A stretch of DNA of 2,923 nt from a virus (Duplodnaviria; Heunggongvirae; Uroviricota; Caudoviricetes): IMG/VR virus record IMGVR_UViG_2703718821_000008; one strand, written 5' to 3'. Under the pieces are notes generated by a model that saw nothing but the letters and a program-made list of their open reading frames with translations, ran no database searches and was not told the DNA's origin. This document shows positions 1 to 2,923 of the stretch, in pieces. The position numbers and the translations under genes were made by a program. Each line of letters begins with the position of its first letter. Positions within the stretch are counted from its first letter, which is position 1.

Positions 1-252
1 CATCGCCTTTTCGATCGCCGGTAACAGAGCCTGCATTTTTTCAACAGCATCAGGGGTGTCTTTATCCAGCCAACGGAAAATTTTCTGGGTATTACGGGCC
101 AGGGCTTCCGGATGGCTGTCGTCGTACAGTTCAGGGAACGTCATCCCCAGTTCGAAATAAGTCCGGGCTATTTCAGCTGCGGGAACTTTCTCACCGTCAG
201 GATATGCCCAGGCATTCATCGCCATGCGGATGTGCTCATGCTTGATTTTCAT
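1..252 (-). CDS. YdaT-family protein (prophage CII-like regulator), N-terminal part only; gene runs past the left window edge
   Basis: Reverse complement of 1..252 translates without stops from ATG (252..250) as MKIKHEHIRMAMNAWAYPDGEKVPAAEIARTYFELGMTFPELYDDSHPEALARNTQKIFRWLDKDTPDAVEKMQALLPAIEKAM. Its ATG overlaps the TGA stop of the upstream Cro-like gene (ATGA at 249..252). The MKIKHEHI start and the position next to a cro-like gene match my recollection of the YdaT family; not verified by alignment. Not in the ORF track because it is truncated by the window edge. Confidence 0.6.
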   Translation of the reverse strand, partial: MKIKHEHIRMAMNAWAYPDGEKVPAAEIARTYFELGMTFPELYDDSHPEALARNTQKIFRWLDKDTPDAVEKMQALLPAIEKAM

Positions 253-464
253 GAATCATTCCTCATTTCGTGCGAGGTGTTATTCTTCTTTTTGTACAGC
301 TCTGGGTTGTATTTCAATTCACCACCAGTAATTTCATCCAACTCAATTGCTCGAAGTTTTGGAATAACAGATTTCCACCGAACAACAGCCACGTGTGAAA
401 TTCCCAGAGCCTCTGCTACTAGCCGCTTTTTTTTGAAATAGCGTAGGACATCATCTTTAAACAT
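249..464 (-). CDS. Cro/DicC/YdaS-family small HTH DNA-binding protein (cro analog), 71 aa
   Basis: Minus-strand ORF (track 249..500). I place the start at the internal ATG 464..462 (MFKDDVLRYFKKKRLVAEALGISHVAVVRWK...), which has a G-rich Shine-Dalgarno (GGGGG, plus coords about 471..475) 6 nt upstream. The track start at 500 is a TTG lying inside an operator palindrome. The HTH-like segment is RLVAEALGISHVAVVRWK. The gene is divergent from the repressor gene. Confidence 0.7.
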   Translation of the reverse strand: MFKDDVLRYFKKKRLVAEALGISHVAVVRWKSVIPKLRAIELDEITGGELKYNPELYKKKNNTSHEMRNDS

Positions 465-493
465 AAATTCCCCCTGTAAAACCGAACCTAAAG

Positions 494-507
494 GTAACAA
501 TAGTTAC
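494..507. promoter_or_regulatory. Operator-like palindrome O1 GTAACAATAGTTAC
   Basis: Perfect 5-bp inverted arms GTAAC/GTTAC with a 4-bp spacer. It overlaps the spacer and -10 of the putative cro-like promoter and is immediately followed by the ATG at 508. Confidence 0.6.
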
Positions 508-541
508 ATGATAATGTCAACCATAGTGACATCCATTGGTA

Positions 542-555
542 GTAACATTGGTTAC
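542..555. promoter_or_regulatory. Operator-like palindrome O2 GTAACATTGGTTAC
   Basis: Same GTAAC-N4-GTTAC architecture as O1. It is immediately followed by the ATG at 556 and contains a -10-like TAACAT (543..548) about 7 nt upstream of that ATG, consistent with a leaderless repressor transcript. Confidence 0.6.
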
Positions 556-1230
556 ATGAACACTACTATTAGCGAACGCATCCGAAAGCGTCGAAGAGAC
601 ATAGGTCTAACCCAACAGCAGGTTGCAAAGGCTATCGGCGTCACCCGTGTATCCGTAACAAAGTGGGAAAATGGTTCAACAAAACCGGACGGTGAGAATT
701 TACATCTGCTGTCAAAACTGTTTTCCAAATCACCTGAATGGATTCTTTATGGGAAAGATATTCACGATCAAGTCGATGATTTGCGATTGAATCAACTCCC
801 CTACCTTAGTGACAACATCACCCGGTTGCCCGTTTTAACGTGGGAACAGGCTGGTTACTGGGATATGAGCTACCCAGTAACCGAAATCCCTGGTATTAAG
901 AATTGGGTTGATGTCATGACAAAAACATCTGAAAACTCTTTTTTATTGCGCGTTGAGGGAGATTCAATGACAAACTCTAACGGTTTGCCAACGATCCCCG
1001 ACGGCTCCACGGTGTTGATCACTCCATGCTCTGGCAACATTGGGGAGATGGCGGGAAAGATTGTTCTAATCCAACTAGAAGGAATACCAACTGTAACACT
1101 GAAAAAAGTCGCAATTGATGGCCCAAACATCTACCTACTGTCATTAAATCCGCTTTACAAGCCTATAGAACTCAATGGTCGCTACACCATTAAAGGTAAA
1201 GTCTCACAAATCCATCAATACTTAGATTGA
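556..1230 (+). CDS. CI-type prophage repressor: N-terminal XRE-family HTH plus C-terminal S24 (LexA-like) autopeptidase domain; 224 aa (240 aa if started at 508)
   Basis: Track ORF 508..1230. The HTH is LTQQQVAKAIGVTRVSVTKWENG (about 607..675). An Ala-Gly candidate cleavage site sits in the linker (EQAGYW; GCT GGT at 850..855). The S24 catalytic serine motif is EGDSM (Ser codon 964..966) and the catalytic lysine is in VTLKKV. Start 556 is preferred over 508 because it gives a normal-length N-terminus before the HTH and leaves a 91-bp divergent control region; neither ATG has a Shine-Dalgarno. Confidence 0.85.
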   Translation: MNTTISERIRKRRRDIGLTQQQVAKAIGVTRVSVTKWENGSTKPDGENLHLLSKLFSKSPEWILYGKDIHDQVDDLRLNQLPYLSDNITRLPVLTWEQAGYWDMSYPVTEIPGIKNWVDVMTKTSENSFLLRVEGDSMTNSNGLPTIPDGSTVLITPCSGNIGEMAGKIVLIQLEGIPTVTLKKVAIDGPNIYLLSLNPLYKPIELNGRYTIKGKVSQIHQYLD

Positions 1231-1232
1231 CC

Positions 1233-1260
1233 AAAAGCCCGCATATATTGCGGGTTTTTC
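1233..1260 (+). terminator. Rho-independent terminator downstream of the repressor gene
   Basis: Stem CCCGCA (1238..1243) pairs with TGCGGG (1249..1254), loop TATAT, followed by TTTTT (1255..1259) and preceded by AAAA (1233..1236), so it may work in both directions. It starts 3 nt after the repressor stop. Confidence 0.7.
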
Positions 1261-1291
1261 ACACGCCTTTATGTAACTTATAGAACACGCA

Positions 1292-1320
1292 TTGACTCAA
1301 CGAGTAACTTCTGTTACCTT
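1292..1320 (+). promoter_or_regulatory. PL-like promoter with embedded operator O3 (GTAACTTCTGTTAC, 1304..1317)
   Basis: TTGACT (1292..1297), 17-bp spacer, TACCTT (1315..1320). A third exact GTAAC-N4-GTTAC palindrome overlaps the spacer and -10, with the same geometry as O1 at the cro-like promoter. A GTAAC half-site lies at 1273..1277. The -10 is a poor match to TATAAT, so the promoter call is tentative. Confidence 0.5.
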
Positions 1321-1496
1321 CATTGCGTACCCACCCCGTCCCACAGAACGCCGGGCAATACTTCGAGTTACCCGGCAGTGGTCAGGGGTTAAGTAGCCAG
1401 CCCGAGGCGTATGAACATGACGGCGGGAACACTTTGTATAACAGCGCAGCAGGTTTTTAGTTCCGCTACCCGGCGTTAAGGGGAAATGAGGTCAAC

Positions 1497-1649
1497 ATGG
1501 ATACGCTCAATCTTGGCAACAACGAATCTCTGGTATGCGGCGTGTTTCCCAACCAGGACGGCACGTTTACCGCGATGACGTATACCAGAAGCAAAACGTT
1601 TAAAACTGAAGCTGGCGCGCGTCGCTGGTTAACCAGAAACACTGACTGA
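1497..1649 (+). CDS. ydfA: Small prophage protein, YdfA/YdaF-like (50 aa)
   Basis: ATG 1497 with GAGG Shine-Dalgarno (1488..1491) 5 nt upstream; translation MDTLNLGNNESLVCGVFPNQDGTFTAMTYTRSKTFKTEAGARRWLTRNTD; stop TGA at 1647..1649. It is not in the supplied ORF track (probably below the length cutoff). It resembles my recollection of the small YdfA (Qin) / YdaF (Rac) proteins that follow the repressor gene; unverified. Confidence 0.65.
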   Translation: MDTLNLGNNESLVCGVFPNQDGTFTAMTYTRSKTFKTEAGARRWLTRNTD

Positions 1650-1660
1650 TGAGGTTGACG

Positions 1661-2035
1661 ATGGAATTTAAAGATTTACCACTACCATTCCAGGAAATGG
1701 CTGCGAATATAGTTCGTTCTCAACTGGCCACTCTTGACCTGAGTACCGTAGAAAAAGAAACCATCGATAATATATCCGGTAACGTACGCCGAGCCTTTAT
1801 CGGGCTGTACGAAGAGAAGCAGCTCTCTGATAACCAGGATTTACATGAAAAATACTTTCTGGAATTAATGGACATCATTAATAAAGGATTTGGCTTGTTA
1901 ATGAAAAAGAAAGGGATTCGAATAGCTCCCCTTGAAAATCATTTTACAGCAAGCAGTATTAACTCCTGTGATTTAAAGCATCACACATCCGATGGGAAAG
2001 TTGAATCAAACAACAAAATATCAATTAATCATTAA
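1661..2035 (+). CDS. Hypothetical protein, 124 aa (128 aa if started at ATG 1649, which overlaps the upstream stop as TGATG)
   Basis: Track ORF 1649..2035. ATG 1661 has a GAGG Shine-Dalgarno (1651..1654) 6 nt upstream; ATG 1649 has none but overlaps the stop of the preceding small ORF. The protein is soluble-looking and acidic/lysine-rich, with no motif I recognise. The last ~40 codons are AT-rich and low-complexity (ending KISINH). Confidence 0.6.
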   Translation: MEFKDLPLPFQEMAANIVRSQLATLDLSTVEKETIDNISGNVRRAFIGLYEEKQLSDNQDLHEKYFLELMDIINKGFGLLMKKKGIRIAPLENHFTASSINSCDLKHHTSDGKVESNNKISINH

Positions 2036-2114
2036 TTTATTCACGGGTGAGGTAGAGCGCGTGCGCCGGACACGGATAAGAATCCGGCACTGACAGTTTA
2101 CTGAAAGAACATAT

Positions 2115-2130
2115 CCCTGAAAAGTCAGGG
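2115..2130 (+). other. Perfect hairpin CCCTGA-AAAG-TCAGGG in the non-coding block
   Basis: 6-bp perfect stem with 4-nt loop. Other hairpins nearby: GCCGGA/TCCGGC (2065..2070 / 2083..2088), AGCGCACG/CGTGCGCT (2142..2149 / 2187..2194), CCGCG/CGCGG (2210..2214 / 2221..2225). Confidence 0.7.
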
Positions 2131-2261
2131 CATAACACGAAAGCGCACGGCGAGAATATAAGGCTTGTCGTTAAATTTAATTCGATCGTGCGCTTCCGGT
2201 TGTGGCAATCCGCGAAATGGCGCGGCGGTAAGTATGGCTGGGGCTTCCTCCATTGCTCCAG

Positions 2262-2281
2262 AAAATGCACCAAAATGCACC
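2262..2281 (+). repeat. Perfect tandem duplication AAAATGCACC x2
   Basis: AAAATGCACC at 2262..2271 is repeated exactly at 2272..2281, inside the non-coding block. Confidence 0.9.
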
Positions 2282-2343
2282 GGGTTGTCAGGTTGACCAT
2301 GCGCCTGAGTGACAACACCGCCACAACAACCTCTGTTATCACT

Positions 2344-2382
2344 TTTCTGGTGATTCGGCGGAAATGGATATCCGCCATTTTT
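2344..2382 (+). ncRNA. dicF: Candidate DicF-like small RNA ending in an intrinsic terminator
   Basis: The sequence TTTCTGGTGATTCGGCGGAAATGGATATCCGCCATTTTT resembles my recollection of the 5' end (UUUCUGGUGA...) and the GGCGG/CCGCC-U-run terminator of E. coli DicF. It sits between the 124-aa ORF and the dicB-like gene, as dicF does in Qin. The downstream sequence AAAGTGTATTTTGTGATGCGGTGAATGCGG also resembles the K-12 dicF-dicB spacer from memory. The exact 5' end is unknown and the candidate is shorter than the 53-nt K-12 DicF. Confidence 0.45.
2357..2382 (+). terminator. Rho-independent terminator (3' end of the DicF-like element)
   Basis: Stem GGCGGA (2357..2362) pairs with TCCGCC (2371..2376), 8-nt loop AATGGATA, followed by ATTTTT (2377..2382). 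Confidence 0.6.
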
Positions 2383-2549
2383 AAAGTGTATTTTGTGATG
2401 CGGTGAATGCGGCTAAGCGCACGCGGAACAGTTAAAGCTAAAAACAGCGTTATGGGTGATTCTGTATTCCGGCGTTAATTGTTAACTGGTTAACGTCACC
2501 TGGAGGCACCAGGCACCACATCACAAAATTCATTGTTGAGGACGCGATA

Positions 2550-2738
2550 ATGGAAACGTCACTACCAAACGTTAATACGTCTGAAGGGTGTTTTAATATT
2601 GGTATTCTGCTCAGTAACCGGGAGTTTACTGAAGATGCCATCAGGATGAGAAAATATGAGCCTTATCTTCTCAATGATAATTCCATTCTCTCCAGAATTG
2701 CCCTTATTAAACTTGGCATTTTCGGAGGGCAGCAGTGA
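2550..2738 (+). CDS. dicB: DicB-family cell-division inhibitor (62 aa)
   Basis: ATG 2550 with GAGGA Shine-Dalgarno (2538..2542) 7 nt upstream. Translation METSLPNVNTSEGCFNIGILLSNREFTEDAIRMRKYEPYLLNDNSILSRIALIKLGIFGGQQ. The N-terminal half (LPNVNTSEGCF.IG...SN..FTEDAI..RK) matches my recollection of E. coli DicB, which is also 62 aa; the C-terminal half diverges. Confidence 0.8.
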   Translation: METSLPNVNTSEGCFNIGILLSNREFTEDAIRMRKYEPYLLNDNSILSRIALIKLGIFGGQQ

Positions 2739-2923
2739 GTTCAGCGTTTGCACTGATGATGACGGTTTTTCTGATAACAGGTGAGCCACAGAATGTGATT
2801 ACCGGAATTTATGCCAGTAAAGAATCCTGCCATCAGGCAAGAGACGAGCAAAAAATTTCCGGTGAATGTCTCCCGTTAAACAAAGTATCGCTGTACCTGA
2901 ATAACGAAACACCGGCTGGATAA
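2735..2923 (+). CDS. ydfD: YdfD-like small membrane protein (putative prophage lysis protein), 62 aa, GTG start
   Basis: GTG 2735 overlaps the dicB-like TGA stop (GTGA 2735..2738), with a strong GGAGGG Shine-Dalgarno (2724..2729) 5 nt upstream. The N-terminus is hydrophobic (SSAFALMMTVFLITG), consistent with one transmembrane helix. Stop TAA at 2921..2923. Position after dicB and size match YdfD of Qin; sequence identity is from memory only. Confidence 0.6.
   Translation: MSSAFALMMTVFLITGEPQNVITGIYASKESCHQARDEQKISGECLPLNKVSLYLNNETPAG

Follow-up and report, generated by a model that had tools for sequence, protein, structure and literature searches.

A probable lambdoid immunity switch with a predicted SOS-cleavable S24 repressor upstream of a dicB-type left operon in Escherichia coli

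The trigger of the toxic dicBF operon, carried by the Qin prophage of Escherichia coli K-12, has been an open question for decades, its repressor DicA being non-cleavable and mitomycin C non-inducing. The operon promoter dicBp has been likened to lambda pL and the dicA-dicC pair to an immunity-like switch; mitomycin C has no effect on dicBp, the antirepressor Rem derepresses it, and it flips spontaneously (PMC10448788). The Gifsy-type class of repressors is inactivated by the binding of LexA-controlled antirepressors and not by self-cleavage, SOS control being thus indirect (Lemire et al., PMC3121763). In lambda itself, prophage induction brings on the expression of Kil and, through it, a transient filamentation (PMC3961180). 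We describe here a viral stretch of 2,923 nucleotides (IMG/VR record IMGVR_UViG_2703718821_000008, Caudoviricetes), called the window hereafter, in which a dicB-type operon lies downstream of a CI-type repressor gene. By its sequence this repressor is a canonical S24 protein of the LexA/CI type, with predicted cleavage site, nucleophile and general base all in place.

The window proteins were scanned against Pfam and PHROGs, the window RNA against Rfam and the repressor against PDB sequences, and the repressor was aligned together with lambda CI, LexA and DicA. The repressor gene and its predicted functional residues are as follows:

556..1230, plus strand: CI/C2-type repressor of 224 residues, with HTH_3 and Peptidase_S24 domains (PHROG 4, transcriptional repressor, E=8e-46)
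850..855, plus strand: predicted self-cleavage site Ala99-Gly100 (EQAGYW), aligned on lambda CI A111-G112 (VQAGMF)
964..966, plus strand: predicted nucleophile Ser137, codon TCA, aligned on lambda S149 and LexA S119 (VSGMSMK)
1102..1104, plus strand: predicted general base Lys183, aligned on lambda K192 and LexA K156 (TVKRL)

The HTH_3 domain covers residues 9-63 (Pfam, E=1.4e-15) and the Peptidase_S24 domain (PF00717) residues 92-216 (E=1.3e-18; 67.2 bits for a cut-off of 23.3; profile positions 1-115 of 116). In the PDB sequence search, residues 10-217 align to the full-length lambda repressor 3bdn_A (E=1.5e-15), and the N-terminal domain is closest to P22 C2 (E=2e-12). The aligned pairs between the window and lambda CI read PVLTWEQAGYW/PVFSHVQAGMF, VEGDSMT/VEGNSMT and TLKKV/TFKKL, and the multiple alignment gives the same residue correspondence. 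The roles of A111-G112, S149 and K192 in lambda are established (PMC9926225), as is that of LexA S119 (PMC1088971). Since this apparatus is complete in the window protein, RecA-stimulated self-cleavage is to be expected. Within the wider family (at least 43% identity), Ala-Gly, Ser and Lys occupy the three sites in 83 of 92 clusters, and the window protein appears to be a typical, active-looking member.

The initial annotation of this DNA had proposed an intact S24 machinery, and both the S24 domain, aligned over the catalytic Ser and Lys, and the full-length lambda CI alignment bear this out, with the Ala-Gly pair exactly where it had been placed. It had also described DicA as a short helix-turn-helix protein devoid of peptidase domain. 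DicA is indeed 135 residues long and has an HTH_3 domain only, with neither S24 domain nor Ala-Gly, and its 49% identity to the window repressor is confined to the N-terminal 67 residues; the literature agrees on the missing S24 cleavage domain (PMC10448788).

None of the deposited isolated phages encodes a protein more than 60% identical to the window repressor. Its immunity specificity is new and unstudied; the class itself, that of the SOS-cleavable lambda and P22 repressors, is known, and the locus is not a new kind of system. Three named phages were considered as carriers of this repressor and rejected: downstream of the S24 repressor gene of mEp460_4F5 there is no dicB, in mEp460_ev081 the repressor ahead of dicB is 135 residues long, and Phage 204576 has an S24 repressor of another, 212-residue type, which is frameshifted.

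The start codon deserves a comment, as the RefSeq homologue is 238 residues long and begins at the equivalent of window position 514 (508 and 514 being the alternatives to 556). With the 238-residue form, the operators described below would fall inside the coding sequence. The ATG at 556 is favoured, on the basis of the alignment with the N-termini of P22 C2 and DicA and of the operators at 494-507 and 542-555. No obvious Shine-Dalgarno sequence is seen before this ATG, so that a leaderless maintenance transcript, like that of lambda cI, is possible.

The second line of evidence comes from the operators. Exact GTAAC-N4-GTTAC palindromes occur three times in the window, at 494, 542 and 1304, for 0.01 expected, and all three lie in promoter regions. 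The control elements are listed here, with reference to a sibling allele of the repressor that is taken up further on:

492..521, minus strand: putative pR promoter for cro, read from the minus strand, with -35 TTGACA at 521..516, an 18-nucleotide spacer and -10 TACCTT at 497..492
494..507: OR1-like operator GTAACAATAGTTAC, exact match, kept in the sibling-allele loci
517..530: possible degenerate middle operator TCAACCATAGTGAC, 7 of 10 half-site positions, a weak candidate picked out by eye
542..555: OR3-like operator GTAACATTGGTTAC, exact match, abutting the repressor start codon and kept in the sibling loci
1233..1259: probable terminator after the repressor gene, a hairpin AAAAGCCCGCA-TATAT-TGCGGGTTTTT (inverted repeat I23)
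1292..1320, plus strand: putative pL-like promoter of the dicB operon, with -35 TTGACT at 1292-1297, a 17-nucleotide spacer and -10 TACCTT at 1315-1320
1304-1317: operator GTAACTTCTGTTAC inside the pL-like promoter, exact match

Measured from centre to centre, the degenerate middle site lies 23 and 25 bp from the exact sites on either side. The putative pR and pL-like promoters are alike in their -10 hexamer and in its overlap with an operator half-site (inverted repeat I1); the pR -10 matches the consensus at 3 of 6 positions only, hence the absence of a call by consensus scan. In the sibling-allele loci both cro/repressor operators are identical, and the pL operator keeps its half-sites but has another central spacer (GTAACTCTTGTTAC). 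Where the repressor is of another type, the sequence at the pL operator position is unrelated, beside the same -35, and homology among loci of different immunity types starts at 1329, just after the expected transcription start. Because an operator with identical half-sites lies inside the pL-like promoter, and given three sites for 0.01 expected, one and the same repressor very probably controls both early promoters, dicB operon included. The locus thus displays the attributes of a lambdoid immunity region, namely a divergent cro-type gene and operators common to the rightward and leftward early promoters. No LexA box (CTGT-N8-ACAG, at most one mismatch) was found in the window, which gives no sign of direct LexA control.

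The genomic context points in the same direction. A megablast survey of 5426 complete E. coli genomes matched the whole window at 99.4% identity in its nearest genome, that of strain JNE170426 (NZ_AP027217), where the locus is inside a prophage inserted adjoining yccA. One flank carries genes for replication, for RusA and for a DNA methyltransferase, together with tRNAs and stx2A/stx2B; on the opposite flank, the ydfD-like gene is immediately followed by an exonuclease gene, an excisionase-like gene and an integrase gene. No pseudogene is annotated within the 27 kb inspected around the locus. The order of cro, repressor, small genes, dicF, dicB, ydfD, exonuclease, xis and int recurs in free phages such as Tritos. 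Taken as a whole, the explanation that we favour with good confidence is that of a lambdoid immunity switch with an SOS-cleavable repressor and a dicB-type left operon, the window spanning the immunity region of a Stx2a-type E. coli prophage and the first part of its early-left (pL-type) operon. The initial placement of the operon under this repressor is thus supported by the operator inside the dicB promoter; its description as a division operon with an unusual repressor is better replaced by that of the pL operon of a Stx2a prophage.

The mechanism would be as follows. In the lysogen, the repressor would bind the GTAAC-N4-GTTAC operators of the cro/repressor region and of the pL-like promoter, keeping both early transcripts off. 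Upon DNA damage, RecA filaments would stimulate its self-cleavage at Ala99-Gly100, as for lambda CI and P22 C2. The derepressed pL-like promoter would then drive ydfA, a 124-residue open reading frame, a short dicF, dicB and ydfD, followed by the exonuclease, excisionase and integrase genes. DicB, and possibly YdfD, would play the role of Kil, that is, a transient block of host division during induction. The SOS responsiveness of the dicB operon would in this scheme be the default of textbook lambdoid logic.

How common such repressors are upstream of dicB was examined in a set of 160 IMG/VR dicB loci plus reference loci, the nearest upstream repressor being classed by script and representatives by Pfam. 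An S24-domain protein is present in 23 of the 149 loci with an identifiable repressor, the IMG/VR sample being redundant and skewed toward the two query variants, and belongs to three immunity types: that of the window, one of 212 residues and one of 214 residues. The other loci (about 126 of 149) have short repressors of 129-166 residues without S24 domain, of about 17 types, most with a Gifsy/DicA-like C-terminal region. In the genome survey, the window-family gene is present in 701 genomes, and all inspected copies sit upstream of ydfA..dicB..ydfD..exonuclease; the 212-residue type occurs with dicB in about 324 genomes and the 214-residue type in 2. S24 repressors are thus largely routine at dicB loci, which by the initial annotation's own standard makes the arrangement an ordinary one.

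The word "intact" used there nevertheless captures a real distinction. Among the 701 genomes, only 8 carry the window allele (at least 95% nucleotide identity to the window repressor gene), versus 693 with a sibling allele (about 84% nucleotide and 87% amino acid identity). VEGDAMT is the reading in each of the 14 sibling copies inspected, with Ala (GCG) in place of the nucleophile Ser (TCA) and with Ala-Gly and Lys kept. An exact 61-mer around GAT-GCG-ATG is found in 681 of the 5426 genomes, ST131 among these, as against the 8 genomes with the Ser allele; sibling copies are also found in O26:H11, O111:H8 and O39 strains. The proteins include WP_000103687.1, WP_000103686.1 and others, and the related loci are L004 (6556-7230), L173 (4001-4675), L174, L175, L176, L177 and L178. 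Since LexA S119A is unable to self-cleave (PMC1088971), the sibling repressor is, by analogy, very probably a natural non-cleavable CI upstream of dicB. As it has the same operators, it is probably homoimmune with the window phage. The two other S24 types also deviate: the 212-residue type (L010, 4026-4664) has Ala-Ala for Ala-Gly at the cleavage site (QQAASW), and the 214-residue type (L033, 3773-4417) has Thr for Ser (PDDTM) and Ala-Ile at the cleavage site. The canonical apparatus is therefore the exception among dicB-linked repressors.

In the wider family, the Ala nucleophile is confined to the E. coli sibling clusters and to one Salmonella cluster equidistant from both E. coli alleles (92 clusters in all), which implies two losses or one reversion. 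It is thus tempting, although still doubtful, to propose that S24-fold repressors of the dicB lambdoid lineage have repeatedly lost RecA-cleavability, that the window allele is a rare form still cleavable under SOS conditions, and that a resident element with the Ala allele could give dominant non-inducible immunity. If this were true, such a resident allele would block superinfection by, and SOS induction of, a Stx2a phage of the same immunity, and Shiga-toxin (Stx) release would be tied to which allele a strain carries. No paper describing a natural Ser-to-Ala repressor allele was found, nor any description of a dicB operon under an S24 repressor, in a literature coverage that was incomplete, so that this is absence of evidence only.

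Several points weigh against the favoured explanation. Short non-cleavable repressors, subject to inactivation by antirepressors, predominate among dicB phages (about 126 of the 149 classified loci; PMC3121763), the closest relative of the window repressor has lost its nucleophile, and direct cleavage is thus not the norm in this phage group. Repressor cleavage and mitomycin C induction are themselves predictions made from the sequence, as are the activities of DicB and YdfD. Both promoters have a weak -10 hexamer (TACCTT) and escape the consensus scan. An intrinsic terminator (2357-2382) stands between the promoter and dicB, requiring read-through, as in K-12 (PMC5069750, PMC10448788). The completeness of the window's own prophage is not visible from the window.

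Two alternatives are of about equal and low probability. The S24 residues could be kept while RecA cleavage is absent or slow, dicB induction then occurring through an antirepressor or a Cro-driven bistable flip, as in Qin and Gifsy. The dominance of antirepressor-type short repressors in this phage group (PMC3121763) and the behaviour of K-12 dicBp, insensitive to mitomycin C, derepressed by Rem and flipping spontaneously (PMC10448788), would fit such a scheme; moreover, the Ala-nucleophile sibling persists with the same operators in prophages of 681 genomes, so that cleavage-independent mechanisms must exist in the lineage. On the other hand, all three cleavage determinants of the window repressor are canonical, residue for residue with lambda CI, and the family retains them in 83 of its 92 clusters, which points to selection on cleavage; no antirepressor gene is apparent in the window, where none was searched for. 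This first alternative is thus considered unlikely.

Equally unlikely in our view, the locus could be a domesticated Qin-like cryptic remnant kept for DicB phage exclusion or division control, in which cleavage would trigger host physiology and not phage development. K-12 Qin is an example of a defective prophage in which a dicB operon has survived, DicB confers protection against phage infection (PMC6832061), and several sibling-allele loci adjoin seemingly truncated prophage arms. The nearest genome speaks against such a remnant, with replication genes, stx2 with tRNAs, exonuclease, excisionase and integrase genes around the locus and no annotated pseudogenes in 27 kb. Finally, a dicB operon driven by a promoter outside the control of this repressor, the palindrome at 1304-1317 being an incidental match, is very improbable: it could invoke a pL-like promoter that no scan calls and a left side with one exact operator instead of the two or three typical of lambda OL, but it has to face three exact 10/10 palindromes (0.01 expected) all in promoter regions, a sibling pL operator with half-sites kept and spacer changed, a different sequence at exactly that position beside the same -35 in other immunity types, and a module boundary (1329) that coincides with the expected transcription start.

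Coming back to the lambdoid switch with an SOS-cleavable repressor, the other features of the window are the following:

1..252, minus strand: ydaT/cII-like gene truncated at the window edge, with its 5' part (84 codons) inside (Pfam YdaT_toxin, E=1e-8)
249..464, minus strand: cro-like gene of 71 residues, divergent from the repressor gene (Pfam P22_Cro, E=5.5e-16; PHROG 409, transcriptional regulator)
465..555: intergenic region of 91 bp between the cro and repressor genes
about 1260..1496: untranslated stretch after the terminator-like hairpin
1329..1496, plus strand: conserved leader from the promoter to ydfA, 87-90% identical in phages with unrelated immunity regions
1497..1649, plus strand: ydfA-like gene, DUF1391, 50 residues (Pfam, E=4e-29), 86% identical to K-12 YdfA
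1661..2035, plus strand: protein of 124 residues, PHROG 6937 (E=2e-77), without Pfam family, at the position of K-12 ydfB/ydfC
2036..2549: untranslated region of 514 bp, 5' of dicB
2036..2343, plus strand: untranslated region 5' of dicF, equivalent to the K-12 precursor region, with 89% mean column identity among the window, K-12, phage Tritos and strain UTME-9
2344..2382, plus strand: short dicF allele of 39 nucleotides, homologous by position and alignment, with an internal deletion
2383..2549, plus strand: nearly invariant spacer between dicF and dicB
2550..2738, plus strand: dicB, 62 residues (Pfam PF05358, E=7e-33, positions 1-62 of 62), 56% identical to K-12 DicB
2735..2923, plus strand: ydfD-like gene, DUF1482, 62 residues (Pfam, E=4e-14), 45% identical to K-12 YdfD, its stop being the last codon of the window

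The ydfA-like, dicB and ydfD-like genes of the initial annotation are thus confirmed by Pfam. Its dicF-like gene stands by position and alignment and not by the Rfam model, as it is a deleted, 39-nucleotide allele. The Rfam DicF model (RF00039) finds no match in 2290..2430 at E<=10, nor in the whole window at E<=1, with K-12 dicF scoring 76.7 bits for comparison. The short allele keeps the 5' seed UUUCUGGUGA, the terminator stem GGCGG/CCGCC and the U-run (a scan places a terminator-like site at 2357-2376), and lacks an internal segment of about 19 nucleotides including ACUCCG, the anti-ftsZ ribosome-binding-site motif. K-12 DicF pairs with the ftsZ ribosome-binding site through its 3' region and with xylR through its 5' region (PMC5069750). 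In a fold and duplex comparison, K-12 DicF pairs across the ftsZ Shine-Dalgarno sequence, whereas the window allele has no such segment; the duplex energies of the DicF alleles with ftsZ do not discriminate from shuffled sequences, so the argument rests on the missing ACUCCG segment. Since this 3' pairing segment is absent, the DicF filamentation put forward initially is doubtful for this locus, judging from the allele, and DicB likely remains its division inhibitor. The short allele predicts a small RNA with the DicF 5' seed but no longer targeting ftsZ.

The 39-nucleotide allele is present in 22 of 166 dicB loci, with various repressors, including a locus of E. albertii (L085). A DicB peptide-pattern scan of one genome per species returned a single locus, from E. 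albertii, too little for a comparison across species. Other dicF alleles (L062, L015, L040, L050 and L076; about 200 nucleotides upstream of dicB) have a 5' end GTAGT[AC]TTTGGTGGC... and an intact 3' ACUCCG part, and that of L056 differs in both the 5' and 3' parts. From these sequences, DicF looks modular, with 5' and 3' targeting segments exchanged independently. The focused Rfam search at E<=10 yielded nothing above chance level; one of its matches, AgvB (15 bits for a gathering score of 56), was rejected since AgvB genes are located at the PR' moron site and not here (PMC4104026). The dicF-dicB spacer gives a sub-threshold Rfam match to STnc100 (34 bits for a gathering score of 47), both here (2375-2582) and in K-12 (L003, 4447-4587); STnc100 is a Salmonella small RNA candidate, and in prophages of that genus it is probably the equivalent of this spacer. 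At 2322-2328, 16 nucleotides upstream of the dicF 5' end, stands the heptamer CACAACA, which is the consensus target of the GcvB R1 seed, with TGCAACG in K-12; this single 7-mer is compatible with chance.

The leader at 1329-1496 is 76% identical in an Actinobacillus phage and absent from K-12 Qin. It has no Rfam match, and its predicted fold is no more stable than those of shuffled sequences (z=0.65). An antiterminator RNA like HK022 put was considered for it and rejected, with no likeness to putL by side-by-side reading, made without alignment, on top of the missing Rfam match and fold stability. The leader region carries an open reading frame of 45 codons with a TTG start (1323..1460). No open reading frame of the left operon matches the lambda-type N antiterminator family in Pfam or PHROGs, the first gene being the DUF1391/YdfA-like one. 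The PHROG 6937 protein stands in for ydfB and ydfC here and co-occurs with both elsewhere, for example in L004. In some dicB loci (L023, 4600-5110; L040, L064 and L066), a short lambda-CI-like repressor of 166 residues is accompanied by two small left-operon open reading frames of 63 and 96 residues, located between the repressor and ydfA/dicB, which by eye look like an antitoxin of the ParD/RelB type and a toxin of the ParE/RelE type. The ydaT/cII-like gene sits downstream of cro on the rightward (pR) transcript; its product matches PHROG 163, "CII-like transcriptional activator" (E=7e-37), and its RefSeq homologue is named "toxin YdaT family protein".

The value of this locus is mainly comparative, through its pairing with the common Ser-to-Ala sibling and its contrast with K-12 Qin. 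In some live-looking Stx2a prophages, the operon whose trigger has long been sought in K-12 lies behind an ordinary repressor predicted to be SOS-cleavable, and its trigger is probably just DNA damage. The window locus therefore offers a natural system to follow DicB and YdfD during real prophage induction, and the Ser allele (8 genomes) and Ala allele (681 genomes), with the same operators, form a natural pair to study loss of cleavage, Stx induction and immunity.

Compared with lambda and P22, the likeness lies in the two-domain repressor with Ala-Gly, Ser and Lys at homologous positions (lambda CI, P22 C2), in the divergent cro with a cII-like gene behind it, in the palindromic operators at both early promoters and in a repressor gene co-directional with the left operon, with a terminator between them. 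The window differs from both phages by its left promoter with a single exact operator, where lambda OL typically has two or three, and by the lack of an N-like gene after this promoter, the first gene being ydfA-like. DicB would have its counterpart in lambda kil, which also encodes a small host-division inhibitor in the early-left operon. The two proteins are unrelated in sequence: DicB acts through MinC and ZipA, and Kil inhibits FtsZ in a ZipA-dependent manner.

The window shares with K-12 Qin a cro-like gene divergent from the repressor gene and, downstream of the latter, the order ydfA ... dicF ... dicB, ydfD; the untranslated regions around dicF are highly conserved. The differences are the full cleavage apparatus of the 224-residue repressor, the 124-residue open reading frame that replaces ydfB/ydfC, the 39-nucleotide dicF without ftsZ-pairing segment and, in the nearest genome of the window, the intact recombination and integration genes downstream. 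In most related phages, this place upstream of the dicB operon is taken by Gifsy-type short repressors (GfoR/GtgR, DicA, RacR); with 129-166 residues, no S24 domain and, for most of them, a C-terminal "...LPE.EQ..." region, they form a type to which the window repressor does not belong.

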